A stretch of DNA of 64,000 bases, taken from Bacillota bacterium. Its GTDB lineage: Bacteria > Sysuimicrobiota > Sysuimicrobiia > Sysuimicrobiales > Segetimicrobiaceae. Shown here in pieces: positions 6,064 to 55,543 of the stretch. Numbering within the stretch: the first letter of the stretch is position 1; each line of letters opens with the position of its first letter. Both the position numbers and the translations under genes were made by a program. The stretch spans positions 12,919 to 76,918 of the forward strand of contig JAJPJJ010000032.1 in the NCBI GenBank assembly GCA_021324295.1. The letters are read 5' to 3'. The notes under the pieces are model-generated. The model was not told where the DNA came from and did no database searches. It saw only the letters and a list, made by a program, of their open reading frames with translations.

Positions 6064-6103
6064 GACCGGCGGCGGTGCACGGACCGTCAAAGGAGGGGAC
6101 GCG

Positions 6104-10578: not shown

Positions 10579-10750
10579 GCACGCCACCTCCTCAGAAGCC
10601 GCGCAGGCGCTCCGGGGTCCGTGGGGGCGCCCACAGCCCGTTACGTCGCCGCGCCACCGTTTTCCTGTGCTGCGCGACGACACGCCGGGCACGCGGCACC
10701 GCGCCGCGCGAGAGGAACGGCGGGCGGCGCCCCGAAGAACCCCCCACGGC

Positions 10751-28600: not shown

Positions 28601-29617
28601 CTACCGGGCTCCACCCGGTGCGCCGTCGTATGGCAGCCCGGCGAGCTCCCGCAGCGCGCGCTCGACGTAGACGCGCGCCATCCGCTTGCGGTAACCGATC
28701 GTGAGGTCCGCGTTGTCGAGCGGCTTGGCGGGCTCGGAGGCCGCCTGGGCGACGCGCCCGATGAGGTCGGCGGTGAGGCGCTGTCCCATCACGAGGCCGG
28801 CGGCGCGGGTGGCGACGACCGGGCGGGACGCCACGGCGCCGAGGACGATCCGCGCGTCCTCGATCACGCCGCCCGGCCCCGACCGCAGGGCCACGGCCAC
28901 GCCCAGGATCGGGAAGTCGAACGAGCCCCGGCGGCGGAGCTTCCAGTAGGTCGACCGCCAGCCGTCGGCGGGCGGTAGGATGACATCGACGAGGATTTCG
29001 TCCGGCGCCTTGCTCAGGTAGCGCATCCCGTCGTCGCGGTAGAGATCGGCCGCGGAGACGACGCGCTCTCCCCCGGCGCCCACCAGGCGCACCCGCGCGC
29101 CGAGCGCGATCGCGGCTGGCGCCGCGTCCGTGGAGGACAGCGCCCAGCACCGGGGGCTGCCGGGGGCGACGAGGCAGATGTCGCCGTCCTTCTTCATGCA
29201 GAACCCGATCGATTTCCGCCAGTGATAGGTCTGGTTGTAGTAGTTGCACCGGGTATCGAGGCACAGGTTGCCGCCGAGGGTGCCCATGTTCCGCAGCGGA
29301 GGCGTGCTCACCGCGCCCGCCGCGAGCGCGAGCGCCCGGTAGCCCTCGGCGACGGCCGGGTGAGAGGCGACCTGCGCGAGCGTGGCGCAGGCTCCGATCG
29401 CCAGCCCCTGCGCCGGCGTCCCCGAGATCCGGCCGAGGTCGCGGATCCCGCGCAGCCCGACGAGCACCTTGGGCTCGAACTGCCGGCGCTTCATGTTGGG
29501 ATAGAGGTCCGTCCCGCCGGCCACGAGCATCCCTTCGGGACCGGCCTCCCCGATCTGCCCGACGGCCTGCTCTAGGGTGCGCGGGGCCAGGTAGGTGAAC
29601 GGGGGGAGGCGGAGCAT
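28601..29617 (-). CDS. Mo-hydroxylase FAD-binding medium subunit (CoxM/XdhB-like)
   Basis: MLRLPPFTYLAPRTLEQAV…MLVAGGTDLYPNMK…MGTLGGNLCL is a molybdopterin-dehydrogenase FAD-binding domain. Confidence 0.8.
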   Translation of the reverse strand: MLRLPPFTYLAPRTLEQAVGQIGEAGPEGMLVAGGTDLYPNMKRRQFEPKVLVGLRGIRDLGRISGTPAQGLAIGACATLAQVASHPAVAEGYRALALAAGAVSTPPLRNMGTLGGNLCLDTRCNYYNQTYHWRKSIGFCMKKDGDICLVAPGSPRCWALSSTDAAPAAIALGARVRLVGAGGERVVSAADLYRDDGMRYLSKAPDEILVDVILPPADGWRSTYWKLRRRGSFDFPILGVAVALRSGPGGVIEDARIVLGAVASRPVVATRAAGLVMGQRLTADLIGRVAQAASEPAKPLDNADLTIGYRKRMARVYVERALRELAGLPYDGAPGGAR

Positions 29618-29684: not shown

Positions 29685-32186
29685 TCACGGTTCCTCCGGC
29701 GCCTCGCGATCGCGCGGCCGCGCGTCGCTCGGCGCCGTGCCGGTGGGCAGGTCGTCCGGCAGTCCCGGCGCGCCGCCGGCGACCGGCAGCCCCCGGCGCC
29801 ACGGCACGCTCCAGCCCGCGGGCGGCTCGACCTTGATGGGATCGCGGAACCGGAACGGCGGGACCCGCCGGGGTCCCACCCGTCCCACGCCGCCCCGGGC
29901 CGCCTGGTCCAGCGCGGCCAGCACCTTGTCGGGCGTGATCGGCACCTCGTCGATCCGCACGCCGACCGCGTCGTACACGGCGTTCGCGACCGCCGGGATC
30001 ACCGGCAGGAGCGGTCCCTGGCCGGCCTCCTTCGCGCCGAACGGTCCCTCGGGATCGTCGGTCACCACCAGGATCGTCTCCACCGGCGGCATCTCGAGGA
30101 ACGTCGGGCTCTTGTACTCCAGCATCGACGGGATCTTGTGGAGCCCCTTGCGGAAGACCTGCTCTTCCATCAAGGCCTCGCCGAGCGCCATGTAGACGCT
30201 GCCCTCGATCTGGCCGATCACGAGCGTCTCGTTGATCGCGCGGCCGATGTCGTGGGCGATCCAGACCCGCTGCGGCCGGACCTCCCCGGTCGCCGGGTCC
30301 ACGGCGACCTCGACGACGGCGGCGGAGAACGAGTACGCCGGGGACGGGCCGACGCCGGACCCCTTGTAGGGTCCGGCGAGCCTGGGCGGCCGGTACGAGC
30401 CGACGGTCACGAGCGTGCCGAACCTCGCCTCGGCCAGCGCCGCCGCCTCCGGGAACGTCACGCCGCGCTCCGGTTGCGCCGCGGCGTGGATGCGGTGGTC
30501 GCCGACGACCAGGCCGTCGGGCTCCACCTCGAGGTGCGCGGAGGCGGCCGCGACGAGCAACTCGCGCATCTTCCGCGCGGCCTCGAGCGCCGCGTTGCCG
30601 GCCATGAAGGTGACCCTGCTGCTGTACGACCCGAGATCGATCGGGGTCAGGTCCGTGTCCGCGGTCACGAGGCCGATCTCCGAGGGGGCGAGGCCCAGCA
30701 CCTCCGCGACGATGCCGGCGAGCACCGAGTCGCTGCCCTGCCCGATGTCGATCGCCCCGCAGGACACCAGCACGCCGCCGCCCCGGTCCACGCGGATCTG
30801 CACCTCGCTGTGCGGCATGTCGTTCCAATAGATCGGGAGCCCCGCGCCGCTCAGGTACGTGCTGACCGCGAGGCCCACGCCGCGGCCGAACGGCAGGCGC
30901 CGGTGCTTCGCGCGAAAGCCGCTCGCCTCCGCCACGCGCTCGATGCACTCCCGCAGCCCGTTGCTCGTGATGCGGAGGTGGTTCACGGTGCGGGTGAACG
31001 GCTCGGTGGCGTTGGCGAGGCGGATCGCGACCGGATCCAGGCCGAGGTCCTCCGCGAGCTTGTCCATCTGTGCCTCGATCGCGAACCGGGGCTGCGGCGT
31101 CCCGTGGCCGCGCTTGGGCCCGCACGGCGGCTTGTTCGTCCACAGGCGCGTGCCCTCGAACTTGTACGCCGGGATCTTGTACGTGACCGTCTGCAGCGCG
31201 CCGGTGTAGTACGTCGTCGCGATGCCGTAGGAGCCGTACGCGCCGCCGTCGAGGAACGTCTTGATGTGGCACGCCGTGATCCGGCCGTCGCGCCGCACCC
31301 CTGTCCGGAGCCACATCAACACCGGGTGACGGCCCCGGTGGGCGTAGAATACCTCCTCGCGCGTGAGCGTGATCTTCACCGGGCGGCCCGTCGCCACCGC
31401 GAGCTTGGCCGCGCAGAGCTCGTGGCTAAACGGGTCGCTCTTGCCGCCGAACCCGCCGCCGACCGGCGTCGCGATCACGCGGATCCGGCTCATCGGCAGG
31501 CCGAGCACCTTGGCGAGCGCGCGGTGGACGTAGTGCGGCGTCTGCGAGGACGTCCAGAGCGTGAGCCGGCCGGCCGCGTCGTACTGCGCCACCGCGCTGT
31601 GCTGCTCCATCGGCAGGTGCGTGTTGCCCTGGAAGAAGAACACGTCCTCGCGGATGTGGTCGGCCTGCGCAAACCCCTGCGCGACGTCGCCGAATTCGAG
31701 GGAGACGTTCTTGTGGACGTTGGGGACCGGGCCGTCGCCGTGCTCCTGCACCCGGACGGACGTCTCGGCGACCGCCTCCTCGATCGACATGACCGGCGCG
31801 AGCGGCTCGTACTCGACCTCGATCGCCTCGCACGCGCGCTCCGCGGTCTCCTCGTCCAGCGCCGCCACGGCGGCGATCGGGTCACCGACGTACCGCACTT
31901 TCTCCAGGCACAGCGCCTCCTCGTCCTGGCTGGTCGGCATGATCCCGAACCGGACCGGCAGATCGCGCCCGGTGATCACGGCGTGCACCCCGGGCAGGGC
32001 GCGTGCGCGGGAGGTGTCCAGGCGGACGATCCGGGCGTGCGGCAGGTGGCTGCGCAGCAGCTTGCCGTAGAGCATCCGCGGCAGGACGAGGTCGTCCGCG
32101 TACCGCGCCTCCCCGGTCGTCTTCCCGGGGCCATCGACCCTGGCCCAGGGCCTGCCGATGAACCGCGGACCGCCGCCGGCGGTCAC
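29685..32186 (-). CDS. Xanthine-dehydrogenase / aldehyde-oxidase-family molybdopterin-binding large subunit (CoxL-like)
   Basis: GTG 32186..32184 verified in sequence, overlapping the coxS stop as GTGA. Blocks …GEARYADDLVLPRMLYGKLLRSHLPHARI… (a/b hammerhead) and …ATPVGGGFGGK… (Mo-cofactor binding). The upstream 180 aa of the track ORF is low complexity. Confidence 0.85.
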   Translation of the reverse strand: MTAGGGPRFIGRPWARVDGPGKTTGEARYADDLVLPRMLYGKLLRSHLPHARIVRLDTSRARALPGVHAVITGRDLPVRFGIMPTSQDEEALCLEKVRYVGDPIAAVAALDEETAERACEAIEVEYEPLAPVMSIEEAVAETSVRVQEHGDGPVPNVHKNVSLEFGDVAQGFAQADHIREDVFFFQGNTHLPMEQHSAVAQYDAAGRLTLWTSSQTPHYVHRALAKVLGLPMSRIRVIATPVGGGFGGKSDPFSHELCAAKLAVATGRPVKITLTREEVFYAHRGRHPVLMWLRTGVRRDGRITACHIKTFLDGGAYGSYGIATTYYTGALQTVTYKIPAYKFEGTRLWTNKPPCGPKRGHGTPQPRFAIEAQMDKLAEDLGLDPVAIRLANATEPFTRTVNHLRITSNGLRECIERVAEASGFRAKHRRLPFGRGVGLAVSTYLSGAGLPIYWNDMPHSEVQIRVDRGGGVLVSCGAIDIGQGSDSVLAGIVAEVLGLAPSEIGLVTADTDLTPIDLGSYSSRVTFMAGNAALEAARKMRELLVAAASAHLEVEPDGLVVGDHRIHAAAQPERGVTFPEAAALAEARFGTLVTVGSYRPPRLAGPYKGSGVGPSPAYSFSAAVVEVAVDPATGEVRPQRVWIAHDIGRAINETLVIGQIEGSVYMALGEALMEEQVFRKGLHKIPSMLEYKSPTFLEMPPVETILVVTDDPEGPFGAKEAGQGPLLPVIPAVANAVYDAVGVRIDEVPITPDKVLAALDQAARGGVGRVGPRRVPPFRFRDPIKVEPPAGWSVPWRRGLPVAGGAPGLPDDLPTGTAPSDARPRDREAPEEP

Positions 32187-32725
32187 GATGCCCCTCCTGA
32201 ACGCTGGGGCACGCGCGCGGCCGGGGGCCCGCCGTCCCCCGTCGGCTGGGGGGCGTCGCCCCGCGCCCGCGCGGCGGCCAGCTCGACCGCCTCGAGGATC
32301 TTGAGGTAGCCGGTGCACCGGCAGAGGTTGCCCGCAAGCCACGCCGACACGTCCTCGCGCGCGGGCGCGGGGTTCCGGTCCAGCAGCGCCTTGGCCGCGA
32401 GCAGCATCCCCGGCGTGCAGTACCCGCACTGCGCCGCCCCCAGCTCGGTGAACGCCACCTGCAGCGGGTGCAGCTCGCCGCCCCGCGCAAGGCCCTCGAT
32501 CGTGGTGATCTCGCGGTCCTGCACCTCCACGGGCAGGGTCAGGCAGCTCAGCACCGGCGTCCCGTCGACGAGCACCGTGCAGGTGCCGCACTCCCCGAGC
32601 TCGCACCCGTGCTTGGTCCCCGTAAGGCCCAGGTCTTCCCGGAGGACCTCGAGGAGCGTCTTGTGGACCGGGGCGATGACGTCGCGGGCCTCCCCGTTGA
32701 TGCGAAGCGTGAGGGCCACCTTCAT
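32183..32725 (-). CDS. (2Fe-2S)-binding small subunit of the Mo-hydroxylase (CoxS-like)
   Basis: ATG 32725..32723 verified in sequence. MKVALTLRINGE…, plant-type ferredoxin cysteines (CELGECGTCTV) and a second cluster (CGYCTPGM…NLCRCTGY). Confidence 0.85.
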   Translation of the reverse strand: MKVALTLRINGEARDVIAPVHKTLLEVLREDLGLTGTKHGCELGECGTCTVLVDGTPVLSCLTLPVEVQDREITTIEGLARGGELHPLQVAFTELGAAQCGYCTPGMLLAAKALLDRNPAPAREDVSAWLAGNLCRCTGYLKILEAVELAAARARGDAPQPTGDGGPPAARVPQRSGGAS

Positions 32726-32883
32726 GCACGTCGCCTCCCCGTCGCCCGCCCCACCCGTGGCGTGCGGCCGCGATCGGCGCCGGCCGCCCGGCACAGGGTA
32801 AGTACGCCGCCTGCCCGCAGGAGTCCCCTCCCCCCCACGAAAGTAGTCTGCGAGGCGCTGTCTACACGAGGAGGGATCGGACC

Positions 32884-33399
32884 GTGACGAGCACCCGAGC
32901 CGCACGGAGCAACAGGGCGGTCCGCGGCGACAAGGCCCTGCGCGAGGACCTGCTGCAGCTGCTGGGCGGGCGCGGCGCGCACGTGGACTTTGGGCGCGCG
33001 GTCGCCGGCCTCGACGAGAAGCTGAGGGGAACGAGGCCGAGAGGGCTCCCGTATTCGCCCTGGCAGCAGGTCGAGCACATGCGCATCTGCCAGTGGGACA
33101 TCCTGGACTACATCCGCAACCCCCACTACGTCGAGCGCCGGTGGCCGGACGAGTACTGGCCCGCGCCGGCGCCCCCGAGCCCGGACGCGTGGGACAAGAG
33201 CGTCAAGGCGTTCCGGGCCGACCTCAAGGCGCTGCAGGAGATGGTGGCGGACCCGGCGACGGATCTGCTGGCACCGGTGGCCTCCGACGGGAACGGGCCG
33301 ACGATCCTGCACGAGATCCTGCTCGTGGCCGACCACAACGCCTACCACCTCGGGCAGCTCATCGTGCTGCGCCGGCTGCTCGGCGCCTGGCAGGACTGA
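32884..33399 (+). CDS. DinB/YfiT-like (DinB_2) family protein
   Basis: 171 aa. A four-helix metal-binding pattern and …LLVADHNAYHLGQLIVLRRLLGAW near the C-terminus are typical of DinB-family proteins. Confidence 0.65.
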   Translation: MTSTRAARSNRAVRGDKALREDLLQLLGGRGAHVDFGRAVAGLDEKLRGTRPRGLPYSPWQQVEHMRICQWDILDYIRNPHYVERRWPDEYWPAPAPPSPDAWDKSVKAFRADLKALQEMVADPATDLLAPVASDGNGPTILHEILLVADHNAYHLGQLIVLRRLLGAWQD

Positions 33400-33674
33400 T
33401 CCGAAAGTGCCGCGCGTGGGCGCGGCAGCCACGCGCATCGCGACGAGGCCAAGCGGCCGTGGAGCCGAAGTGGGCGGCATCGGCCGCCCCGGGGGGCCGG
33501 GGCCTGGAACCGCGCACCACGACGTCGGAAGACGGCAGTGGAGCCGAGGCGCCCTCGATCGGCGCGGGGGCTTGCCGAAGAGGGTTTTGCGCCGGGCCCG
33601 CCTAACCCCGAAGGGGGTTCTGGGGTAAGGGATGCCGTCCCGCGCCGCAGAACACCCCCGAGGACGGTGACCAC

Positions 33675-35273
33675 GTGGCGCACGCGATCGCCAGCCGGCG
33701 CGCGATCCTGCCCCGGGGCGTGAGCCCGCGCACGTTCGCGCGGGCGATCCGCGAGTTCACCGAGATCGTCGGCGGCCGGAACGTCTCGGTCTCGCCCGCC
33801 GAGCTCGTCCCGTACGCGCACGACGTGATCATGGTGCCCCCGATCTGGCCGTCCGCGGTCGTCCGGCCCGGCTCGGTCGAGGAGATCCAGCGCATCGTCC
33901 GGGTCGCCGGCGCGCTCCGGATCCCGCTCTGGCCGCTCAGCACCGGGAAGAACATCGCCTACGGCCGGATGATGGCCGTGGATCCGGGCAACGTGATCGT
34001 GGACCTCGCGCGGATGAACCGGATCCTCGAGGTCAACGAGCAGCTCGCGTACGCGGTCGTCGAGCCGGGCGTCACCTACGCCCAGCTCTACAAGCACCTG
34101 CGCGACCGGAACCTCCCGCTGTGGCTGGACCCGCCGGCGACCGCGCCGGGCGCCGGCCCGCTTGGCAACACCGTCGAGCGCGGGGTCGGGTACACGCCGT
34201 ACGGCGAGCACTTCCTCTTCTCGTGCGGGATGTAGGTCGTGCTCCCGGACGGCCGGCTGCTGCGCACCGGCTCCGGCGCGCTGCCGGGGTCGCGGACGTG
34301 GCACATCTTCAAGTGGGGGTTCGGCCCGTACCTCGACGGGCTGTTCACGGCCAGCAACTACGGCATCGTGACGAAGCTCGGGATCTGGCTGATGCCGGAG
34401 CCGCCCGCCCACCAGCCGATCCTGATGACGTGCCCGCGGGAAGACGACATCGTGGCGATCATGGACGTCCTGCGTCCGCTCAAGATCTCCCACACGCTGC
34501 CCAGCGCGGTCGTCGTCGCGCACGCGCTGCTCGCGCTCGCCGCGGAGGCGGAGTACCCGTGGCACCTCACCGGCGGCACACGGCCCGTCCCCGATGGCTG
34601 GATCCGCGAGGAGGCGCGGAAGCGGATGCTCGGGATCTGGAACATCGCCGGGTGCGTCTACGGTTCGCCGGCGACCGTCGCGGAGACCGCCGCCGCCGTG
34701 CGCCGCACGGTGGCCGCCGCCCTGCCGCAGGCCACGGTGCTGGATGTCGAGGAGGCGCGCCAGAGTCCGTACTGGGACCACAAGGTCCGCAACATGACCG
34801 GGGTCCCGTCGATGGTCGAATACAGCCGGCTGTCGTGGCGTGGCGGCGGCAACGCGTTCGTCGCGCCGGTGGTCCCCCTCTTCGGCGAGGAGGCACGCCG
34901 GCACATGGAGATCGCCCGGCCGATCTTCTGGAGGCACGGGTTCGACTACATCGGCGAGTTCATCGCGGCGACGCGGGATCAGCACCACGTGATGATGCTG
35001 CTGCACAAGCAGCCGGACGAGATGGAGCGCGCGATGCGGTGCTACCGGGAGCTGACCGACGCGTTCTGCGACGAGGGCTACCTCCCCTATCGCACCAACG
35101 TCGCGTTCATGGAGCACACGATGAGCCGGCTGGACCCCGTGTTCCGGGACGTCTGCGTGCGGATCAAGCGGGCGCTCGACCCGCACGGGATCCTGGCGCC
35201 CGGCAAGAACGGGATCCGGGTGGACGGCGCGCCGGCGCCGCGCAGCCGCCGCCGGCGGGGCGGGACGCGATGA
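33675..35273 (+). pseudogene. VAO/PCMH-family FAD-linked oxidase (vanillyl-alcohol oxidase / p-cresol methylhydroxylase type), interrupted by an in-frame TAG at 34233-34235
   Basis: Two same-frame ORFs (33675..34235 and 34239..35273). The N-terminal half is a VAO-like FAD-binding domain (…PLWPLSTGKNIAYG…VVEPGVTYAQLYKHL…[31 protein letters not shown]…). VAO has …[27 protein letters not shown] here, so the TAG replaces a conserved Glu (GAG). Confidence 0.6.
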
Positions 35274-36667
35274 GCCGCCGGCGGCCTGCCCGCGCGGGGA
35301 ACGGCCGACGCGCCGGCGGCGTGAGCGGGGCGGACCTCCGCCGGGAGATCGAGGCCAAGGGGATCAACCTGTTCGAGTGCTACACCTGCCGGCTCTGCAC
35401 CGAGGAGATGCAGCGCGGCATCCTGACGCTGACCGAGCCCTACCGCAAGGCGTTCGGGGAGGCCGAGTGGAGGCGCGACCTGTTCAACGAGCCGGTGTGC
35501 CCCACGTGGGACTACTACCGCCACGAAGCGTACACCGCCTACGGCCGGGCGCTCCTGGCCCGCGACCTGGCGGACGGCCTGGCGGTCGACCCGGCGGATC
35601 CCCGGCTGCGCGAGGTCGTGTACACCTGCCTGCTTTGCACCGGGTGCCAGGAGCTGTGCTTCTCCCGCAACCGCGTGCCGCTGATGAAGCCGTTCATGGA
35701 GCTGCCGCGCGAGGTCTGGGACATCCACGGGATCCTGCTGGCCGAGCGGAAGTGGCTGTTCGAGCGCCACGGCTGGGCCGCCGTGCCCGAGGGGCTGGCC
35801 GCGCTGGCGCAGCGGATCCTCCAGAGCGGCACCGCCACCGGCGAGCCGCGCCGCGGGGCGACGCGCTGGATCGAGGCCACCGGCAGCGAGGTCGTGGATC
35901 TCAGCCGCGCCGGGCGCGCCGACGTCCTCCTCCTGCTCGATGCGCAGGCGCCGTACGAGCGCGCGCTGTGGCCGGCGCTCGCCGCGATGGTGCGCCTGCT
36001 GCGCGCGGCGGGGCTGGTGGTGGGCGTGCTCGGCGCGGAGGAGATCGCCACCGGGCTCGCGGTGCTCGCGTGCGGCGACGTCCAGGACTACCTCCGGCTG
36101 AACCACGAGGCGGTCCGCCGCGTCGCGCAGGTCGCGGACCGCGCGGGGGTCGGATGCGTCGTCACGGTGGACGACACCGGGTACCTGGCGTGGACGGCGC
36201 CGGCCAAGCACTACGGGCTGGCCGGCGACCTCCCGTTTCCGTTCGCCCACGCCGTGCCGTTCCTCCACTCCCTGCTCGAGGAGGGCCGGGTGCCCCTCGT
36301 GCGGCCGGTCGAGATGGAGGTCGTGCTGCTCGACTCCTGCCACCTGGGACGGTACAGCAAAGTCCTCGACGCGCCGCGCCGGATCCTCGCCCGCGTGCCG
36401 GGCCTCCGCGTGCAGGAGGCGCACCTGCGGCGTGAGTACCTCTACTGCTGCGGCGCCGCGGCCGGGGTGCCGGAGGCCTATCCGGCGCAGGCCGCGTGGT
36501 GGGGCCGGAAGCGGCTGGGCCAGGCCCGGGAGGTCCTCCACACCGGGCGCACCGTGGTGACGACGTCGCTCGTCTGCGGCGCGCACCTGCGCCGGATCGC
36601 TGCGGGCACGGGCGATGCGCTCGAGGTGCGGGACCTCGCGGAGGTCGTGGCCGCGGCCCTGGCCTGA
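35270..36667 (+). CDS. Iron-sulfur protein with two 4Fe-4S motifs and two CCG domains (GlcF/HdrD/LldE-F-like)
   Basis: ATG 35270 overlaps the upstream TGA as ATGA. CYTCRLC…CP and CLLCTGCQELC ferredoxin-like motifs; CCG-type cysteine motifs …DSCHLGR… and …YLYCCGAAAG…. Confidence 0.75.
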   Translation: MSRRRPARAGNGRRAGGVSGADLRREIEAKGINLFECYTCRLCTEEMQRGILTLTEPYRKAFGEAEWRRDLFNEPVCPTWDYYRHEAYTAYGRALLARDLADGLAVDPADPRLREVVYTCLLCTGCQELCFSRNRVPLMKPFMELPREVWDIHGILLAERKWLFERHGWAAVPEGLAALAQRILQSGTATGEPRRGATRWIEATGSEVVDLSRAGRADVLLLLDAQAPYERALWPALAAMVRLLRAAGLVVGVLGAEEIATGLAVLACGDVQDYLRLNHEAVRRVAQVADRAGVGCVVTVDDTGYLAWTAPAKHYGLAGDLPFPFAHAVPFLHSLLEEGRVPLVRPVEMEVVLLDSCHLGRYSKVLDAPRRILARVPGLRVQEAHLRREYLYCCGAAAGVPEAYPAQAAWWGRKRLGQAREVLHTGRTVVTTSLVCGAHLRRIAAGTGDALEVRDLAEVVAAALA

Positions 36668-36678: not shown

Positions 36679-37869
36679 ATGTCGCAAAGGGGGGTGGTGA
36701 CCACGTTGCTGTCTGTGTCACGGAGGCTCGCCGGCATCGTCCTCGGGGTCGCCCTGGCCGCGGGGATCCTCGTGCCCGAACGCACCGTGCTCGGACAGGG
36801 AGCGCCGATCAAGATCGGCACGGTGTTCGCGGTGACCGGCCCGGCGAGCTCACTCGGCAAGCCGGAGAAGGATACGGCGACGATGCTCCAGGCGCAGCTC
36901 GCCGCCGCCGGCGGGGTGGGCGGCCGGCCGGTGCAGATCATCACCTACGACAGCGAGACGGATCCGACGAAGGCGCTGCTCCTCATGAAGAAGGCCGTCA
37001 CGGAGGACAACGTGACCGCGGTGGTCGGCGGGACGACGAGCCCGGAGTCGCAGGCGATGGCCGACTACGCGATGCAGGCGGACATCCCCTTCATGTCCGT
37101 GGCCGCGAGCACGACGCTCAGCGTCCCGAGCCGCGCGTGGGTGTTCCAGATGCCGCAGCGCAACAGCATCGCGGCCGCCAAGGCGGTCGAGTACCTCGCC
37201 GCCATCCACGCGCGGACGTTCGCGTTCCTCTATCGCAACGACGACTTCGGCCAGGACGGCCTCGTCGCGCTGCGGACGTACGGCGGGCAGCGCGGGATGG
37301 CGATCGTCGACGCGGAGCCGTTCGCGGCCACCGACACCGATCTGAGCGCTCAGGTCGCCCGCGCGCGGGTCAAGAACCCCGACGCGATGGTGGTCTGGAG
37401 CACGCCCCCGACCGCCTCGATTGCGGCCAAGGACATCCGGCAGCTCGGGATGCGGGTGCCGATCGTGGAGAGCCACGGCATCGCCAACAAGGCGTTCATC
37501 CAGCTCGCCGGCCCGGCCGCGGAGGGGGTCGTGTTCCCGTCGGGCAAGCTGCTCATCGCCGGCCAGCTCCCGGCGGACGACCCGCAGAAGGCGCTGCTCC
37601 TCCGCTACGCCAAGGATTTCGAGGCCGCGAACCACTACACGGCCAACACGTTCGGCGGCCACGCGTGGGACGGCCTCACGATGCTCCTCGACGCGATCCG
37701 GCACGTGGGCCCGGACAAGGCCCGGATCCGGGACTACGTGGAGCACGTGCGGGGGTTCATCGGCACGGGGGGCGTGTTCACCATGTCGCCGCAGGATCAC
37801 AACGGTCTGTCCACCCGCGACATGGCGCTCATCGTCATCCGGCACGGCGACTGGTCCCTCTGGAAGTAG
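36679..37869 (+). CDS. livK: Branched-chain amino-acid ABC transporter substrate-binding protein (LivK/LivJ-like)
   Basis: ATG 36679 verified in sequence. Signal peptide MSQRGVVTTLLSVSRRLAGIVLGVALAAG. Type-I PBP pattern …IKIGTVFAVTGPASSLGKPEKD…. Confidence 0.8.
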   Translation: MSQRGVVTTLLSVSRRLAGIVLGVALAAGILVPERTVLGQGAPIKIGTVFAVTGPASSLGKPEKDTATMLQAQLAAAGGVGGRPVQIITYDSETDPTKALLLMKKAVTEDNVTAVVGGTTSPESQAMADYAMQADIPFMSVAASTTLSVPSRAWVFQMPQRNSIAAAKAVEYLAAIHARTFAFLYRNDDFGQDGLVALRTYGGQRGMAIVDAEPFAATDTDLSAQVARARVKNPDAMVVWSTPPTASIAAKDIRQLGMRVPIVESHGIANKAFIQLAGPAAEGVVFPSGKLLIAGQLPADDPQKALLLRYAKDFEAANHYTANTFGGHAWDGLTMLLDAIRHVGPDKARIRDYVEHVRGFIGTGGVFTMSPQDHNGLSTRDMALIVIRHGDWSLWK

Positions 37870-37893: not shown

Positions 37894-38769
37894 ATGCTCG
37901 CCCTGCTGCCGCAGCTCGTGCTGACCGGGCTCACCGTCGGGAGCATCTACGCGCTCGTCGCCCTCGGCTTCGTCGTGATCTACAACGTCACAGGGATCCT
38001 GAACTTCGCGCAGGGCGAGTTCCCGATGCTGGGCGCGCTGCTGTGCGCCTCGCTGCTCGCCGGGGGGCTCTCCGTCCCCCTCGCCGCGGTCGCCGCGGTG
38101 GCGGCGGTCTGCGTCCTCGGGGCGCTCGTGGAGCGGCTGGCCGTGGAGCCGGCGTACGGGAGCCACCCGCTCACGCTGATCATCATTACCTTCGGCGTCT
38201 CGATGGCGTTCCGGGGTCTCGCCCTGATGGTCTGGGGCGCCGACCCGTACACGCTGCCGGAGTTCACGCCGGGCGCCCCGCTCGTGCTGTTGAGCGGGGT
38301 CCTCACCCGCCAGGCGGTCTGGGCGATCGGCCTGTCCCTCGCCGTCGTCGCCGCGCTGTTCCTGTTCTTCGCGTGCACGGTCCCGGGCGCCGCGGTCCGG
38401 GCGTGCGCCGACAACCCGTTCGCCAGCCGGCTCGTGGGCATCAGCCCGCGGCGGACGTCCCTGTTCGCGTTCACGCTGAGCGCCGGGCTCGGGGCGGTCG
38501 CAGGCATCGTGATCGCCCCCATCACCGGCGCCACCTATGACATGGGGCTGGGGCTCGGGCTCAAGGGGTTCGTCGCGGCGGTGATCGGCGGGCTGACCAA
38601 CGCGCCGGCCGCGGTCGTCGGCGGCTACCTCGTGGGGCTCATCGAGGCGCTCGCGACCGGCTTCCTCACACCCGGGTACAGCGGGGCGATCACGTTTCTC
38701 GTGCTCCTCCTCGTCCTGTTCCTCCAGCGGGAAGGGCTGCTCCATGGCGCCCAGCGCAGGCGGGCCTGA
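37894..38769 (+). CDS. livH: Branched-chain amino-acid ABC permease (LivH-like)
   Basis: …LTVGSIYALVALGFVVIYNVTGILNFAQGEF… is a canonical LivH N-terminus; eight TM helices. Confidence 0.85.
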   Translation: MLALLPQLVLTGLTVGSIYALVALGFVVIYNVTGILNFAQGEFPMLGALLCASLLAGGLSVPLAAVAAVAAVCVLGALVERLAVEPAYGSHPLTLIIITFGVSMAFRGLALMVWGADPYTLPEFTPGAPLVLLSGVLTRQAVWAIGLSLAVVAALFLFFACTVPGAAVRACADNPFASRLVGISPRRTSLFAFTLSAGLGAVAGIVIAPITGATYDMGLGLGLKGFVAAVIGGLTNAPAAVVGGYLVGLIEALATGFLTPGYSGAITFLVLLLVLFLQREGLLHGAQRRRA

Positions 38770-38936: not shown

Positions 38937-40007
38937 ATGAGCGGGGAGCGCCTGGGGCTGGCCGCCCTCGCCGTGGCGCTCGCGGCGGTGCCGGCCCTCG
39001 CCCCCACCGCCTACGTCGTCACCCTCCTCAACGTCATCGGCCTGTACGCGATCGTCACCCTGGGCCTCATCCTGCTCGGATGCAGCGGACAGGTGTCGCT
39101 CGGGCAGGCCGCGTTCTACGGCCTGGGCGCGTACACCTCGGCGCTGCTCAGCCGGGACCTGGGATGGCCCCCCGCGGCGACCATCCCGCTCGCGCTCGGG
39201 CTCGTGGCCGGGACCGCCTACGTGGTGGGGGTGCCGACGCTGCGGCTGGCCGAGCACTTCTTCGTGCTCGCCACGCTCGGCGTCGGCATCATCGTCAACG
39301 TGCTGATGGTGCAGCTCGTGCCGCTCACGGGCGGGGCGAGCGGGCTGCGCGATATCCCCGGCCTCGCGCTGCCGGGCGTCCGCATCACCACGGACCGCCA
39401 GTTCTACTACCTCATCTGGACGCTCGTCTTCGTCACCCTCATCCTCGCGCGCAACATCACGTCCCACCGCACCGGCCGCGCCCTGCGTGCCATCCTCGGG
39501 AGCGAGGTCGGCGCCGCCGCGCTCGGGGTCGAGGTCTCCCGGTACAAGATGCACGTCTTCGTGCTGAGCGCCGTCTACGCCGCGCTCGCCGGCGCGCTGT
39601 ACGCCCACTACATCCGGTTCATCTCCCCCTCGCCGTTCTCGCTGTACGCGTCGCTGTTCTTCCTCATCATGGCGGTCGTGGGCGGCCTGACGAACATCTG
39701 GGGAGGCCTGCTGGGCGCGGCGGCGGTGACGATCCTCGACCAGATCATCCGGGCGGAGGTACCGCGCGTCTTCCCCCGCGTGGGAGGCGAGTACCAGACG
39801 GCGATCTACGGCATCCTCCTCGTGCTCATCATGATCTTCTTCCCCTCGGGCATCGTCCGCGGGGCGCTGGACCTGCGGCGGCTGCTCGTCCGCAGCGCCG
39901 CCCGCCCTGCCCCGGTCCCCGCCGGCGCCCAGGATCCGCCCACGCTCGGCGACCCGCCGCCCGTGGCGCCCCGGGCCAAGCCCGCCGACGGCGGAGGTGG
40001 GATGTGA
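38937..40007 (+). CDS. livM: Branched-chain amino-acid ABC permease (LivM-like)
   Basis: ATG 38937 verified in sequence. …YVVTLLNVIGLYAIVTLGLILLGCSGQVSLGQAAFYGLGAY… is LivM-like. The track ORF from 38874 adds an Arg-rich extension. Confidence 0.8.
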   Translation: MSGERLGLAALAVALAAVPALAPTAYVVTLLNVIGLYAIVTLGLILLGCSGQVSLGQAAFYGLGAYTSALLSRDLGWPPAATIPLALGLVAGTAYVVGVPTLRLAEHFFVLATLGVGIIVNVLMVQLVPLTGGASGLRDIPGLALPGVRITTDRQFYYLIWTLVFVTLILARNITSHRTGRALRAILGSEVGAAALGVEVSRYKMHVFVLSAVYAALAGALYAHYIRFISPSPFSLYASLFFLIMAVVGGLTNIWGGLLGAAAVTILDQIIRAEVPRVFPRVGGEYQTAIYGILLVLIMIFFPSGIVRGALDLRRLLVRSAARPAPVPAGAQDPPTLGDPPPVAPRAKPADGGGGM

Positions 40008-40804
40008 GCGGGGCCCTGCTCGAGGCGCAGGACCTCAGCCGGCGGTTCGGGGGCGTCGTCGCGCTGCGGCGGGTGAGCTTCGCCGTGGCGCCGCAGGAGA
40101 TCGTCGCGGTGATCGGACCGAACGGCGCGGGCAAGACGACGCTCTTCAACGTGGTCACAGGGCTGCTGGCGCCGACGGCGGGCCGGATCCGGTACCGCGG
40201 GGCCGACCTCGCCGGGCTGTCCCCGGCCCGGATCGCGGCGCTCGGAATCATCCGGACCTTCCAGAACCCGATGGTCTTCGGCGAGATGACGGTCGCGGAG
40301 AACGTGATGGTCGGCTGCCACCGGTGGACGCGGACCGGGCTGCTCGCCGCCGCGCTCGCACTGCCCGGGGCGATCCACGAAGACCGCCTCGTCTCCCGCG
40401 CGGCGCTCGAGGCGCTGGTCCTCGTCGGCCTGCGGGATCGCGCCGCGGATCCCGCCCGCGATCTGCCGGCCGGCCAGCAGCGCCTGCTGGAGATCGCCCG
40501 CGCGCTCGCAGCCCGCCCCACGCTGCTGCTCCTCGACGAGCCCACGGCGGGCCTGAGCGCCGGGGAGGCGCGCCACTTGGTCGAGGTCATCCGGCGGCTC
40601 CGGGCCGACGGCATCACGTTCATCGTCATCGAGCACAATATGGACGTCGTGATGGAGGCCGCCGATCGCGTCATCGTGCTCGACTACGGGGAGAAGATCG
40701 CGGAGGGGACGCCGCCGGAGATTCAGCGCGATCCGCGCGTCATCGCCGCCTACCTCGGCGAGGAGCCGGATGCGGTGCCGGCGGCCGGGGTGAGCCTGCC
40801 GTGA
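40004..40804 (+). CDS. livG: Branched-chain amino-acid ABC ATP-binding protein (LivG-like)
   Basis: GTG 40004 overlaps the livM stop as GTGA. Walker A GPNGAGKTT, signature …LPAGQQRLLEIARALA…, Walker B LLLLDEPTAGL. Confidence 0.85.
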   Translation: MSGALLEAQDLSRRFGGVVALRRVSFAVAPQEIVAVIGPNGAGKTTLFNVVTGLLAPTAGRIRYRGADLAGLSPARIAALGIIRTFQNPMVFGEMTVAENVMVGCHRWTRTGLLAAALALPGAIHEDRLVSRAALEALVLVGLRDRAADPARDLPAGQQRLLEIARALAARPTLLLLDEPTAGLSAGEARHLVEVIRRLRADGITFIVIEHNMDVVMEAADRVIVLDYGEKIAEGTPPEIQRDPRVIAAYLGEEPDAVPAAGVSLP

Positions 40805-41544
40805 CCGCGCCGCTGCTCGAGGTCTGCGGCATCAGGACCCGCCGCGGGGGCATCGAGGTCCTCCACGGGATCGATCTGGACGTCCGCGCGGGCGAGATCG
40901 TCGCGGTGATCGGCCCGAACGGCGCCGGAAAGTCCACCCTCCTCGGCACGATCGCCGGCGTGTTTCCGCCGGCGGGCGGCCGCGTGCGCCTGGCGGGTCA
41001 CGATCTCGGCCGGCGGGCAGCGGAGGAGATCGTGCGGATGGGAGTCTGCCTGGTCCCCGAGCGGCGGCAGATCTGGAGCGGCCTGACCGTCCGGCAGAAC
41101 CTGCTCCTGGGCGGGTACCACCGATACTGGCGCGATCGGGCGGGTGTGCGGGCGGATGTCGCGCGGCCGCTCCGGATCTTCCCGAAGCTGGCGGAGCTGA
41201 TCCACCGCGCCGGCGGGCATCTCAGCGGCGGTGAACAGCAGATGCTGGCGATCGCGCGGGGGCTGATGTCCCGGCCCCGCGTCCTGCTGCTCGACGAGCC
41301 CTCGCTCGGGCTCGCCCCGCGCGTCGTCCGGGAGATCACGCAGACGCTGGAGCAGCTGCGCCGGGCGGAGGGGCTCGCGGTCGTGCTCGTGGAGCAGAAC
41401 GTGAAGGCCGCGATGCTCGTCGCCGACCGGGTCTGCGTGATGGAGCGGGGCCGGATCGTGCTCCGCGGTCGGCCGGCGGAGCTGCTCGCGCATCCCGGTG
41501 TCCGCTCGGCCTACCTCGGCAAGGGATACGAGGTGGCGGGGTGA
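40801..41544 (+). CDS. livF: Branched-chain amino-acid ABC ATP-binding protein (LivF-like)
   Basis: GTG 40801 overlaps the livG stop as GTGA. Walker A GPNGAGKST, signature LSGGEQQMLAIARGL, Walker B LLLDEPSLGL. Confidence 0.85.
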   Translation: MTAPLLEVCGIRTRRGGIEVLHGIDLDVRAGEIVAVIGPNGAGKSTLLGTIAGVFPPAGGRVRLAGHDLGRRAAEEIVRMGVCLVPERRQIWSGLTVRQNLLLGGYHRYWRDRAGVRADVARPLRIFPKLAELIHRAGGHLSGGEQQMLAIARGLMSRPRVLLLDEPSLGLAPRVVREITQTLEQLRRAEGLAVVLVEQNVKAAMLVADRVCVMERGRIVLRGRPAELLAHPGVRSAYLGKGYEVAG

Positions 41545-41569: not shown

Positions 41570-42565
41570 GTGAGCGCCGGGCGCGAGGCGGCGCCGGGGG
41601 ACCGCGACCGGGCCCGGGTGTTGATCGTCGGGTGCGGCGCGATCGGCGGCATCTACGCGGCGCGGCTCGCCCGGGTGGCGGACGTCTGCGTGCTGGACGT
41701 CTGGAGGGAGCACGTCGAGACGATCCGGGCCCGGGGGCTGCGCCTCGTGGTCCGGACGGAGGACGTCGCCGAGACCCTGACCGCGTACCCCTCCGCCGCC
41801 GCGGAGCCCGCGGCCCTCCCGCCGGGGCCGTGGAGCCACGCGCTCGTCGCGGTGAAGGGACCCGAGACGCGCGCGGCGCTGCGCGGGCTCGCGAGCCGCC
41901 TCGGCGGGGCGATCGTGCTGACGATCCAAAACGGGCTCGGCAACGCGGAGACGATCGCGGCCGCGTGCGACGCGCCGGTCTGCCAGGGGGTGACGATGAA
42001 CGCGGGCGAGGCGGCCGGCCCGGGCGAGATCCTCCAGACCGAGATCGGCCGGACGTGGCTCGGGCCCCACCGCGCCAGCCTCGAGGAGGCCCGGGCGTGG
42101 GGCGCGCTGCTGCGCCGGGCCGGCATGGCGGCCGATGTCCTCGAGGATCCGCGCGGAGCTGTGTGGGCCAAGCTGATCTTCAACTCCGCGGTGAACCCGC
42201 TCCCGGTGCTCACCGGCCTTCGCCTCTCGGAGGTCTACGCGGACCCGCACACGTACGCGCTCCTCCGCACGCTCGTGGAGGAGGGCACCGCCGTCGCCGC
42301 CGCGCTCGGGATCTCGCTGCCGCACGATCCGATGGCGGTGATCGACGCGCACCGGGCGCTGGGATCCGCCCACGCGCACGTCGGCTCGATGAAACAGGAC
42401 ATCGACCGGGGGCGGCCGACCGAGATCGAGACGCTCACCGGCGCGATCGTGGCCGCGGCCGATCGCGCGGGCGTGCCCGCGCCGGCGCTGCGCACGGTGT
42501 ACCGCCTCGTCAAGGCGATCGAGGCGCGGAGGGCGACCTCCGCCGGCGCGCCCGTGCCGCCATGA
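41570..42565 (+). CDS. 2-dehydropantoate 2-reductase family (ApbA/PanE-like ketoacid reductase)
   Basis: GTG 41570, 25 nt after the livF stop. …RVLIVGCGAIGGIYAARLA… Rossmann motif and the …GSMKQDIDRGRPTEIETLTGAIV… C-terminal block of the KPR family. Confidence 0.75.
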   Translation: MSAGREAAPGDRDRARVLIVGCGAIGGIYAARLARVADVCVLDVWREHVETIRARGLRLVVRTEDVAETLTAYPSAAAEPAALPPGPWSHALVAVKGPETRAALRGLASRLGGAIVLTIQNGLGNAETIAAACDAPVCQGVTMNAGEAAGPGEILQTEIGRTWLGPHRASLEEARAWGALLRRAGMAADVLEDPRGAVWAKLIFNSAVNPLPVLTGLRLSEVYADPHTYALLRTLVEEGTAVAAALGISLPHDPMAVIDAHRALGSAHAHVGSMKQDIDRGRPTEIETLTGAIVAAADRAGVPAPALRTVYRLVKAIEARRATSAGAPVPP

Positions 42566-43452
42566 CGCGCCGCACGCCGCGACGCCTGCGCCCCCGCCGC
42601 GCGCAGCACGCGCCGTCCCCGCCGCGGCCGTCGCCCCGGGACGCCGGCGGGCCTCCGCGGCGGCGCTACCTCGTCAACGCGGTCGAGCGAGCGCTCGGCA
42701 TCCTCGAGCACGTCGACGGCAGCGCGCGCGGCACGGGCATCACCGAGCTGAGCCGGCGGCTCGGGCTGGGGAAGAGCACCGTGCACCGGCTCTGCGCGAC
42801 GCTCGAACACCACGGCTATCTGATCCGCGATCCCGCCACCGGCCGCTACCGGCTGAGCCTGCGCGTCTTCCAGATCGGCAGCACGGCGCTCAGCGACCTG
42901 GGCCTGCCGGCTCGCGCGATGCCCGCGCTCGAAGACCTCGGCGCCTCCGTCCAGGAGACGGTGCACCTCGCGATCCTCGACGGCAGCGAGATCGTGTTCA
43001 TCGGCAAGGTGGAGAGCTCCCGGCCGCTGGGCCTGTATTCCCGGGTGGGGCGCCGCTCCCCGGCGCACTGCACGGCGCTCGGCAAGGTGCTGCTCGCGCA
43101 CGCGGCGGCGGAGGCGCGCGCGCACGTGCTCTCCCGACCGCTCGCGCGCTACACGGCCGCGACGATCACCACGCCGCAGGCGCTGGAGCGCGCGCTGGAC
43201 GAGGTCCGCCGCCGCGGATACGCCGTGGACGACCAGGAGTTCGAGGACGGCGTTCGCTGCGTGGCCGCGCCGGTCCGCGACCACAGCGGCCGCGTCGTGG
43301 CGGCGCTCAGCGTCTCGGCGCCCGCGGGCCGGCTGCCGCGCGGCCGCGTCCCGTCCCTCGCCGAGCAGGTCGTGGCCGCCGCCCGGCGCGTCTCGCGGGA
43401 GCTCGGGTGGCTGGAGCCGCAGGCCGCGGAAGGGGCGCGCCGTGGGACGTGA
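42562..43452 (+). CDS. IclR-family transcriptional regulator
   Basis: ATG 42562 overlaps the upstream TGA as ATGA. HTH …LGILEHVDGSARGTGITELSRRLGLGKSTVHRLCATLEHHGYL… followed by an IclR effector domain. Confidence 0.8.
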   Translation: MTRRTPRRLRPRRAQHAPSPPRPSPRDAGGPPRRRYLVNAVERALGILEHVDGSARGTGITELSRRLGLGKSTVHRLCATLEHHGYLIRDPATGRYRLSLRVFQIGSTALSDLGLPARAMPALEDLGASVQETVHLAILDGSEIVFIGKVESSRPLGLYSRVGRRSPAHCTALGKVLLAHAAAEARAHVLSRPLARYTAATITTPQALERALDEVRRRGYAVDDQEFEDGVRCVAAPVRDHSGRVVAALSVSAPAGRLPRGRVPSLAEQVVAAARRVSRELGWLEPQAAEGARRGT

Positions 43453-45443: not shown

Positions 45444-46319
45444 ATGGCGACGGCGCTGACGTTCAAGGACTTCGCCGGGCAGAAGGCGATGTGGTGCCCG
45501 GGGTGCGGCGACTTCGCGGTCCTGCGCGCCCTGCAGGAGGCGTGCGCCCGGCTCGCCCTGCCCCCGCACCGCATCGTGCTGGTCTCCGGCATCGGCTGCT
45601 CCGGCAAGATCACGTCGTACTTCTCGTCCTACGGGTTCCACGTGCACCACGGACGGACGCTGCCGATCGCCACGGGGATCGCCCTCGCCAACCGCGACCT
45701 CGCGGTGATCGCCGCGGGCGGCGACGGAGACGGGTACGGGATCGGCCTCAACCACCTCATCCACGCGATCCGGCGCGACGTGGACCTCACCTACGTCGTG
45801 ATGGACAACGGGGTCTACGGCAACACGAAGGGCCAGACGTCCCCGACGACGGTGGCGGGGACCATCACCCCCTCGTCCCCCTCCGGGGCGGTCGAGGAGC
45901 CGGTCCACCCGCTCCGGCTCGCGCTCGCCGCCGGGATCACGTACCTCGCCCAGGGTGTGAGCAGCGACGTCCCGCAGCTCGTGCGGCTCATCGCAGGCGG
46001 CATCGAGCACCGCGGGTTCGCGCTCATCAACGTGCTGAGCCCCTGCCCGACCTACGACCGCCTGCGCACGTATCAGTGGTGGCGGGCGCGCCTCGTGAAC
46101 CTCGACGAGGAGCCGTCGTACCGCCCGGACTCGCGCGAGCTGGCGGTGGAGGCGGTCTCGAGCCGCGATGCGTCGATCGTCGGGCTCGTCTACCGGGCCC
46201 CGGGGCGGCCGTTCCAGAGCCGCCTGCCCCGCTTTCGCCCTTCGCCGCTCGCCTCCGAGCGGCTCGCGCCGGATGGGGAGCGGGCCCGGCGGATCCTCGA
46301 CGCGCGGTACGCCGTATGA
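45444..46319 (+). CDS. 2-oxoacid:ferredoxin oxidoreductase beta subunit (TPP-binding)
   Basis: ATG 45444 verified in sequence. …WCPGCGDFAVLRALQEA… and the TPP motif …GGDGDGYGIGLNHLIHAIRRDVDLTYVVMDNGVYGNTKGQ…. Confidence 0.85.
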   Translation: MATALTFKDFAGQKAMWCPGCGDFAVLRALQEACARLALPPHRIVLVSGIGCSGKITSYFSSYGFHVHHGRTLPIATGIALANRDLAVIAAGGDGDGYGIGLNHLIHAIRRDVDLTYVVMDNGVYGNTKGQTSPTTVAGTITPSSPSGAVEEPVHPLRLALAAGITYLAQGVSSDVPQLVRLIAGGIEHRGFALINVLSPCPTYDRLRTYQWWRARLVNLDEEPSYRPDSRELAVEAVSSRDASIVGLVYRAPGRPFQSRLPRFRPSPLASERLAPDGERARRILDARYAV

Positions 46320-53645: not shown

Positions 53646-53682
53646 CCGACCTCCCTCCAGCGCGCCCCTCGTTACCGGCGGC

Positions 53683-55511: not shown

Positions 55512-55543
55512 CGTCTCCCCTTCCGGCCCGCCGCTCCTCAGAG

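Follow-up and report, generated by a model that had tools for sequence, protein, structure and literature searches.

Enzymes of the 4-phenol oxidoreductase family pass their electrons either to cytochrome c, in the case of dehydrogenases, or to O2, in the case of oxidases, and carry covalent flavin adenine dinucleotide (FAD) except for nsVAO (PMC11148156, PMC7617285). The locus described here raises the question of which acceptor is served when the gene following a flavoprotein of this family encodes an iron-sulfur (Fe-S) protein with a CCG domain. The two genes occupy positions 33675–36667 of a 64,000-nt stretch of contig JAJPJJ010000032.1 (assembly GCA_021324295.1, Bacillota bacterium), hereafter the window, to which all coordinates refer. 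An earlier sequence-only reading had described the pair as a flavoprotein of the p-cresol methylhydroxylase (PCMH) and vanillyl alcohol oxidase (VAO) type coupled to a GlcF/HdrD-like subunit. We suggest that it is probably a cytoplasmic, Fe-S-coupled two-subunit 4-hydroxyaromatic dehydrogenase encoded within a 4-hydroxybenzoyl-CoA operon. The core of this proposal, that the two proteins form a redox pair replacing the flavocytochrome arrangement, is the part we consider quite likely.

The flavoprotein and its flavin site

The GC content of the window is 70–77%, and codon-position GC was used to choose the real reading frames. The flavoprotein gene (33675–35273, + strand) was assigned as a PchF-like 4-phenol oxidoreductase gene by PCMH homology, Pfam and GC content at third codon positions (GC3). 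GC3 is ~0.96–0.97 along a single frame of 532 codons, which yields 532 residues if translated through an in-frame stop codon that interrupts the gene in the window (see below), and values of 0.95–0.99 back the frames of both genes of the pair. The Pfam domain FAD_binding_4 is matched with 94.5 bits. Comparisons with the PDB were made using the repaired (stop-free) protein. The best match is the PCMH flavoprotein PchF of Pseudomonas putida (1DII; E 3.7e-137, residues 8–516 against 5–517), followed by nsVAO (9FFK; E 6.7e-130), vanillyl alcohol dehydrogenase VAD (8S7x; E ~1e-123), eugenol oxidase EUGO (5FXD; E 1e-103) and VAO (1VAO and related entries; E ~1e-96). D-lactate dehydrogenase (8JDC) is matched with E 1e-23 in the FAD domain only. 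The PCMH alignment spans 509 residues and includes the FAD_binding_4 domain as well as the VAO-type cap domain, so the 4-alkylphenol-type identity proposed by the sequence-only reading holds over the full length of the protein.

The residues Tyr96, Tyr472 and Arg473 are invariant in the alignment of homologues. They form the equivalent of Tyr95, Tyr473 and Arg474 of PCMH, which we take to be the phenolate-binding triad seen in the PCMH and VAO structures. Equivalents of the active-site glutamates Glu177 and Glu380 of PchF are likewise invariant in the aligned homologues. Judged from its sequence, the flavoprotein is a member of the 4-phenol (PCMH/VAO) clade, not of the GlcD/D-lactate dehydrogenase clade.

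A signal peptide and a transmembrane segment were looked for in the flavoprotein sequence, and neither was found. A candidate twin-arginine translocation signal at the N-terminus (SRRAIL) was rejected, as this stretch corresponds in the alignment to the N-terminus of mature PchF and no hydrophobic region comes after it. The C-terminal tail (region 35222–35330) is Arg-rich and differs in length among the relatives; the copy in the window ends with '...PRSRRRRGGTR'.

The flavin-linking residue and the two residues at flavin N5 are, respectively, Tyr384 and Ala154/Pro155 in PCMH, Tyr381 and Thr/Ile in EUGH, His422 and Asp/Leu in VAO, and His390 and Asp/Leu in EUGO (PMC7617285, Table 1). In the same comparison nsVAO has no flavin-linking residue (L409/L418) and has the N5 pair Thr/Val; no other 4-phenol oxidoreductase has been described whose FAD is non-covalent (PMC7617285). 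When aligned with PchF and nsVAO, the flavoprotein from the window has Leu at the site of PCMH Tyr384 and Asn at the site of His422/His390. Its N5 pair is Ala-Thr, and its GGGG loop is one residue shorter.

The check for a covalent-FAD His that the sequence-only reading had proposed can be answered for the whole CCG-linked clade: all 17 members have Leu instead of the linking Tyr and Asn instead of the linking His. Ala-Thr occupies the N5 site in 16 of the 17, the last being a C-terminal fragment without this region. Both Leu and Ala-Thr are also present in the divergent protein of locus L007 (62% identity). Tyr is present in 94 of the remaining 103 top homologues, in most of them together with Ala-Pro. 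Because the Tyr site is Leu and the His site is Asn across the clade, its FAD is predicted to be non-covalent. The switch of partner thus coincides with the loss of the covalent-flavin Tyr (17 clade members against 103 homologues). In VAO and PCMH the flavin potential falls when the covalent bond is removed, covalent members lying at roughly +50 to +90 mV, and a lower potential would suit electron transfer to Fe-S clusters.

The Fe-S partner and proposed electron transfer

The second gene (35270–36667, + strand) encodes a 465-aa HdrD/EtfD-like Fe-S subunit, identified by Pfam, by profile and Foldseek matches to EtfD and by its cysteine pattern. The description of this partner as GlcF/HdrD-like with two ferredoxin-type clusters and two CCG domains is correct in its first part. 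Two ferredoxin-type motifs, C37xxC40xxC43...C77P and C120xxC123xxC126xxxC130, are invariant in the family alignment, and two [4Fe-4S] cubane clusters are predicted from them; the Pfam match to Fer4_8 is weak. As to the CCG domains, Pfam finds one (residues 351–441, 31.2 bits), and no motif cysteine is left in the N-terminal CCG-fold half across the family, as seen in the family and EtfD alignments. The C-terminal CCG motif retains four of five cysteines (C357, C393, C394 and C436), Ser433 replacing the first Cys of CXXC. Since 90 of the 107 next-tier relatives of similar length retain two CCx motifs, the single-cluster arrangement is a derived feature of the family. The sequence-only reading further named GlcD- and LldD-type flavoproteins as the usual CCG partners, which for LldD does not hold: LldD is a flavin mononucleotide (FMN) enzyme not known to have a CCG partner, and the lactate system with CCG proteins is LutABC.

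A single-sequence phmmer search of the PDB with the Fe-S protein gave nothing at E<=1. A profile search with the family matched EtfD (9OJN) with E 2.1e-30 and HdrB with E 1.7e-5. An AlphaFold model built from a 10-sequence alignment has moderate confidence (predicted local distance difference test (pLDDT) 68.6, predicted template modelling score (pTM) 0.74), the CCG-fold half being good. Foldseek with this model found Mycobacterium smegmatis EtfD (9OJN; E 3.7e-15, TMq 0.60), LutA (6e-9) and HdrB (5e-7). C120, C123, C126 and C130 align to EtfD Cys412, 415, 418 and 422, and C357, C393, C394 and C436 align to the EtfD D2 ligands 637, 672, 673 and 712; all EtfD D1 ligands are absent.

No transmembrane segment or signal peptide was found in the Fe-S protein; hydropathy over 19 residues peaks at 1.94, within the conserved fold. 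A candidate transmembrane helix at residues 236–254 was rejected, as this segment is a helix and a strand of the conserved CCG fold. The N-terminus, 'MSRRRPARAGNGRR', is Arg-rich and not conserved, and the gene could start at a downstream GTG.

The stop codon of the flavoprotein gene and the start codon of the Fe-S gene overlap in an ATGA at 35270–35273 (+ strand), as the sequence-only reading had stated, and this overlap is, as far as the DNA tells, a translational coupling of the pair. The 4-nt overlap is also present in loci L010 and L011, and in the divergent L007 the genes are separated by 6 nt. Homologues of the Fe-S protein form ~23 clusters at 71–78% identity, from soil metagenomes and 'SMAG' soil metagenome-assembled genomes (MAGs). 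Beyond this main group there is one protein, P0023, at 44% identity and then none above ~31%; in an exhaustive HMMER scan of 1.84 billion cluster representatives P0023 scores 804 bits and the next full-length protein 193 bits. The co-occurrence check proposed by the sequence-only reading gave a uniform result. Wherever upstream DNA exists (L010/L011, L012, L015, L016 and L007), the gene directly preceding the CCG gene is PchF-like, and the same order is found in 11 of 11 metagenome loci. In L007, with a GC content of 49% against 73% here, the neighbours are unrelated and only the pair is common (flavoprotein 62%, Fe-S protein 44% identity). We conclude that the pairing is not a chance adjacency and is conserved and clade-specific.

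Relatives of the flavoprotein at <=48% identity have the canonical layout of cytochrome c, PchX, PchF and aldehyde dehydrogenase genes, as in L017 (Betaproteobacteria) and L018 (Solirubrobacterales). In the window no CxxCH motif occurs in 50 genes, and there is no Cytochrome_CBB3 gene near the pair. The claim that the pairing is unlike characterised two-component systems is borne out by the cytochrome c genes of the canonical relatives and by the literature, which describes O2- or cytochrome-c-dependent members only (PMC11148156, PMC7617285). In open-access full text, no PchF-type enzyme was found described together with a CCG/Hdr-like subunit. According to a passage of PMC4122944, Geobacter PCMH is proposed to reach menaquinone via a cytochrome bc1-like complex.

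The CCG relatives at ~30% identity, P0026 and P0027, do not adjoin flavoproteins; hence the association of this CCG family with flavoproteins is family-specific, bar a distant cluster in L019. This cluster (L019:3457–11275; GCA_964467965.1, CAYXUV010000004.1) contains a distant CCG relative (27% identity) amid four FAD_binding_4 genes, two CCG genes and one SCP2 gene, and is preceded by genes for a PaaK-type ligase, a DUF35/ChsH2-like protein and a thiolase. The three tested L019 flavoproteins have 4-phenol oxidoreductases as the best match, in the FAD domain only; the one aligned with the window protein shares 41% identity over 213 residues and lacks the Tyr-Arg phenolate motif. L019 represents another uncharacterised type of VAO-like and CCG pairing.

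Known systems of four kinds can be compared with the pair. With PchCF of P. putida (1DII, 1WVE), EhyAB and pinoresinol hydroxylases it shares full-length flavoprotein homology (42% identity). As in these enzymes, there are the phenolate triad, the active-site glutamates, a dehydrogenase-type small residue (Ala) as the first of the N5 pair, and a two-subunit composition with a dedicated electron-accepting subunit encoded beside the flavoprotein. Unlike PchCF, the pair has no cytochrome c gene, pchX or aldehyde dehydrogenase gene as neighbours; Tyr384, which forms the 8-alpha-O-tyrosyl-FAD link, is replaced by Leu and Pro155 by Thr, besides the shorter GGGG loop; and the partner is an Fe-S/CCG protein of 465 aa. 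PCMH is periplasmic, whereas the enzyme from the window is predicted to be cytoplasmic. The flavoprotein resembles nsVAO of Novosphingobium sp. (9FFK, 9FGE) in having Leu at the Tyr site, no His and a non-canonical N5 pair, and differs from it by Asn in place of Leu at the His site and by Ala/Thr in place of Thr/Val at N5; nsVAO was described as a slow oxidase with no known partner, and no Fe-S subunit of it is known from the literature.

Mycobacterial EtfD (Rv0338c in the HdrD family; M. smegmatis, 9OJN), which the partner matches best both in structure and by profile, is a membrane electron transfer flavoprotein (ETF):menaquinone oxidoreductase. Its electron transfer chain consists of D1, a linear [3Fe-4S] cluster, D2, a noncubane [4Fe-4S] cluster located in the second CCG domain, the two cubane clusters (D3, D4), and then haem b and menaquinone; D2 may be the electron entry from FAD in some homologues (PMC13083937). 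In both proteins the two cubane [4Fe-4S] motifs come first and a pair of CCG-fold domains after them, and the D3, D4 and most D2 ligands align. EtfD takes electrons from the FAD of a flavoprotein, ETF, and the proposed donor here is a VAO-type flavoprotein. EtfD possesses five transmembrane helices, haem b and a menaquinone site, and its first CCG domain holds D1; the protein encoded in the window lacks both a membrane domain and the D1 ligands, and it also differs at the D2 site (no equivalent of His583, Cys709 replaced by Ser). The transfer of electrons from a flavoprotein dehydrogenase to a non-transmembrane Fe-S/CCG protein thought to feed quinone is also the arrangement of GlcDEF, YdiJ/Dld-II, LutABC and GlpABC. 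Unlike in these systems, the flavoprotein in the window is outside the GlcD clade and there is no GlcE; the partners in those systems have two cysteine-bearing CCG domains, and the substrates are 2-hydroxy acids or glycerol-3-phosphate, not phenols. Flavoprotein-to-CCG wiring is thus already well known from GlcDEF, LutABC, GlpABC and ETF-EtfD, and the comparison points to the PchF-type donor as an undescribed variant of it.

In the proposed mechanism, the phenolate of a para-hydroxylated aromatic compound would be held by the Tyr/Tyr/Arg triad of the large subunit, and hydride would pass from the benzylic carbon to FAD with formation of a quinone methide, which would then be hydrated, as expected from family membership. 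The electrons would move to the translationally coupled HdrD/EtfD-like subunit, not to O2 or cytochrome c. By analogy with EtfD, the wire may run from the CCG-domain cluster, the equivalent of D2, through the two cubane [4Fe-4S] clusters to an acceptor that is not encoded in the operon. The acceptor would most probably be the membrane quinone pool, reached directly or via a separately encoded membrane partner; as an identification of the final acceptor, quinone has somewhat less than an even chance of being right.

In-frame stop codon and alternative readings

The sequence-only reading overlooked a TAG in the flavoprotein gene at 34233–34235 (+ strand), which stands in place of the Glu codon (GAG) of the CGMEVVL motif in the context '...TGC GGG ATG TAG GTC GTG CTC...'. 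The position corresponds to PchF Glu186, by count on the PchF alignment (1DII), and Glu is invariant in all aligned homologues. As a consequence, the gene in the window consists of two open reading frames (ORFs) of 186 and 344 aa. If the TAG is a real allele, it removes an invariant residue and truncates the protein after 186 residues, and the locus would be a pseudogene and the system inactive in the genome of the window. Both fragments are recorded on one NCBI contig (106,806 bp); the TAG is not peculiar to the window, because the split gene is present in the deposited assembly. Against this stands the evidence of the other copies. An identical Fe-S protein sequence occurs on 14 public contigs, and all six of those compared at position 34233 have G there (GAG, Glu), including four NCBI MAG contigs. 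Over 13,398 bases this G is the single difference between the window and two independent 157-kb assemblies (L001 and L002; JGI 3300005532 and ENA ERZ27279673), and an intact 532-aa gene is called on five other public contigs, L001–L005. Transversions are common among the differences confined to a single assembly: five of 11 are G->T or C->A. Another G->T, in L006 (window position 34611), coincides with a second split of the gene into 312 and 215 aa; two deposited MAG assemblies of one population thus have different G->T changes, each coinciding with a split of the flavoprotein gene. Downstream of the TAG there is no further decay (GC3 0.96, no frameshift). Because of the GAG in other copies, the transversion-rich unique differences and the absence of downstream decay, assembly or sequencing noise is more likely than real gene inactivation, to which we give a minority chance that is not negligible.

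Other readings concern the identity of the two proteins and their relation. The pair could be an ordinary glycolate or D-lactate oxidase of the GlcD/GlcF type, acting on 2-hydroxy acids and lacking GlcE. The partner does share its broad Fe-S/CCG superfamily with GlcF, GlpC and LutA, and GlcD models match the FAD-binding domain weakly. However, the GlcD equivalog TIGR00387 gives 66.2 bits against a cutoff of 567.9 and covers residues 62–253 only, PRK11230 scores 45 against a cutoff of 897, and Pfam FAD-oxidase_C, with 18.2 bits, is under its 21.2-bit cutoff. The 4-phenol triad is conserved, and the full-length PCMH match far exceeds that to D-lactate dehydrogenase. The grouping with GlcD or D-lactate dehydrogenases that the sequence-only reading had named as contradicting its proposal is not observed, and we consider the identity of the pair as a GlcD/D-lactate oxidase refuted by the sequence, with almost no probability left to it.

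Several observations weigh against the Fe-S-coupled dehydrogenase that we favour, besides the interruption of the flavoprotein gene in the window. The N5 pair Ala-Thr fits neither the published dehydrogenase nor the oxidase signature, and the relative nsVAO, with its non-covalent FAD and Thr/Val pair, reacts slowly with O2 (PMC7617285). Because of these two points, the flavoprotein may, by analogy, have oxidase activity. The genes would then be operon neighbours encoding no redox partners, the flavoprotein being an nsVAO-like oxidase or using a diffusible acceptor and the Fe-S protein serving another step. This is unlikely, since only the pair stays together between the lineages of 73% and 49% GC, its genes overlap, and the Fe-S family is tiny and each of its members with upstream DNA follows such a flavoprotein; moreover, the flavoprotein lacks the acidic N5 residue that oxidases typically have, and the operon is of an anaerobic type (see below). 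At the CCG site, compared with EtfD D2, Cys709 corresponds to Ser433 and His583 has no equivalent. An under-coordinated site of this kind, together with the CCG fold and the HdrB matches, would agree with a catalytic, HdrB-like subunit that reduces a disulfide or a small-molecule acceptor with electrons from the flavoprotein and involves no quinone; open coordination is tied to catalysis in Hdr (PMC13083937). HdrB, however, requires two noncubane clusters, one per CCG motif, and one motif here is cysteine-free; by far the best match is EtfD, an electron wire; and there are no thiol-cofactor genes in the operon. The benzylic oxidation of phenols is also a fairly high-potential couple and a poor disulfide reductant, and we regard a catalytic CCG subunit as more improbable still than a pair of unconnected neighbours. 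The N-terminal Fe-S region of the AlphaFold model is of low confidence, with pLDDT <50 at residues 41–92 and 124–149. No membrane anchor, haem-b subunit or HdrE/NarI-like gene was found among the Pfam-scanned ORFs of the window, and no quinone-site signature was found, which makes the link to quinone one of analogy. Lastly, the substrate assignment follows from the gene context in one lineage, and L007 conserves only the pair.

Operon context and proposed pathway

The pair heads a conserved operon in a high-GC soil lineage. It is followed on the + strand by genes, identified by gene calls and Pfam, for a Liv/HAAT-type ATP-binding cassette (ABC) importer: a binding protein (36679–37869), permeases (37894–38769 and 38937–40007) and ATPases (40004–40804 and 40801–41544). 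The importer is downstream of the pair in all close relatives. In comparison with the PDB, its binding protein matches 4DQD and 3SG0 at 1.8e-47, 3TX6-type entries at ~1e-36 and LivJ at 1e-18; we take 4DQD, 3SG0 and the 3TX6-type proteins to be aromatic-acid-binding proteins of R. palustris. Next come, on the same strand, a ketopantoate-reductase-family (ApbA/PanE) oxidoreductase (41570–42565; Pfam ApbA and ApbA_C, TIGR00745 213 bits), an IclR-family regulator (42562–43452; Pfam HTH_IclR and IclR_C) and a two-subunit 2-oxoacid:acceptor (ferredoxin) oxidoreductase (OFOR; alpha 43442–45271, beta 45444–46319; Pfam POR, POR_N and TPP_enzyme_C). The OFOR subunits score 611.8 bits with TIGR03710 and 287.9 bits with TIGR02177, both over the cutoffs. 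The last + strand gene of the operon encodes a PaaK-type aryl-acetate/aryl-carboxylate CoA ligase (46316–47647; Pfam AMP-binding_C_2), which scores 243–249 bits with PaaK models, under the equivalog cutoffs.

Transcribed divergently (- strand) are the genes of a 4-hydroxybenzoyl-CoA-reductase-like (Hcr-like) molybdenum enzyme, assigned by TIGR models: beta 28601–29617, alpha 29685–32186 and gamma 32183–32725. It scores 884.7 bits with TIGR03194 (cutoff 994.6), the next family being xanthine dehydrogenase at 533, and 285 and 190 bits with TIGR03195 and TIGR03193. The beta subunit has a Cys-rich insertion at residues ~119–157 ('CLDTRCNYYNQ...C...C...C'), where the Xdh models align in two parts, leaving out residues ~120–156, and through which the 4-hydroxybenzoyl-CoA reductase beta model aligns. 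The insertion agrees with the extra [4Fe-4S] loop of 4-hydroxybenzoyl-CoA reductase.

Given the importer, the ApbA-family dehydrogenase, OFOR, the PaaK-type ligase and the divergent Hcr-like enzyme, the PchF-like enzyme probably starts an O2-independent route from an imported 4-hydroxyaromatic acid via 4-hydroxybenzoyl-CoA to benzoyl-CoA. Two variants of this route can be considered. In the first one, the flavoprotein would hydroxylate the C-alpha of 4-hydroxyphenylacetate or its CoA ester to give 4-hydroxymandelate, the ApbA-family enzyme would oxidise 4-hydroxymandelate, and OFOR would convert the product to 4-hydroxybenzoyl-CoA; D-mandelate dehydrogenases belong to the ApbA/PanE (ketopantoate reductase) family. 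In the second one, p-cresol would be converted via 4-hydroxybenzaldehyde to 4-hydroxybenzoate, and OFOR would only supply reduced ferredoxin to the reductase. We favour the first variant because an ABC importer is present and an aldehyde dehydrogenase is absent: neither an aldehyde dehydrogenase gene nor pchX was found beside the pair. 4-Hydroxyphenylacetate as the substrate nevertheless remains a tentative assignment.

For the alpha-oxidation step of 4-hydroxyphenylacetate, a molybdenum enzyme of the PadBCD type is known in denitrifiers. In its most complete and more doubtful form, our proposal is that the clade may constitute a third electron-acceptor class of 4-phenol oxidoreductases, cytoplasmic, with non-covalent FAD and connected to the quinone pool by a reduced EtfD/HdrD-type subunit that has one CCG cluster. 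Within the soil lineage, such an enzyme would convert 4-hydroxyphenylacetate (or its CoA ester) via 4-hydroxymandelate to 4-hydroxyphenylglyoxylate independently of O2, replacing the PadBCD-type enzyme and feeding 4-hydroxybenzoyl-CoA reductase.

The 4-phenol oxidoreductases VAO, EUGO and PCMH are models for the choice between O2 and a protein acceptor and for the purpose of covalent flavinylation, and members of the family serve as biocatalysts on lignin-derived phenols. A natural clade in which the cytochrome is exchanged for an Fe-S/CCG protein and the flavin-linking Tyr is lost offers a ready comparison, and could show the joint evolution of partner, flavin potential and cellular compartment. 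The finding also widens the range of flavoprotein donors of the EtfD/HdrD-type wire, here in a minimal version with one CCG cluster, and the context suggests an unrecognised O2-independent entry to the 4-hydroxybenzoyl-CoA pathway in uncultured soil bacteria.

Shortly before the flavoprotein start codon, at 33613–33657, there is an imperfect inverted repeat (two 20-nt arms with 75% complementarity, separated by 5 nt), a possible operator at which the IclR regulator encoded in the operon might act. Neither promoters nor terminators were detected when 32700–33800 was scanned. A DinB_2-family protein is encoded between the divergent units (32884–33399, + strand; Pfam on the public gene call), with no NCBIfam match. 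The operon contains no second FAD_binding_4 gene (GlcE), and the 64-kb window contains neither a tRNA gene nor a match to an Rfam family at gathering score. A second ATGA overlap, at 46316–46319, joins the OFOR beta gene and the PaaK-type ligase gene and suggests tight translational coupling along the operon.

Elsewhere in the window, genes for a UbiD-family decarboxylase (5984–7525, + strand), a bicupin protein (9544–10809, - strand) and a PF02441 UbiX/Dfp-type flavoprotein (10529–11350, + strand) may form a second aromatic-acid (de)carboxylation module, adjoined by TctA, TctC and major facilitator superfamily (MFS) transporter genes at 357–5040. Three luciferase-like monooxygenase genes are clustered on the - strand (52740–53762, 54519–55550 and 55544–56785).

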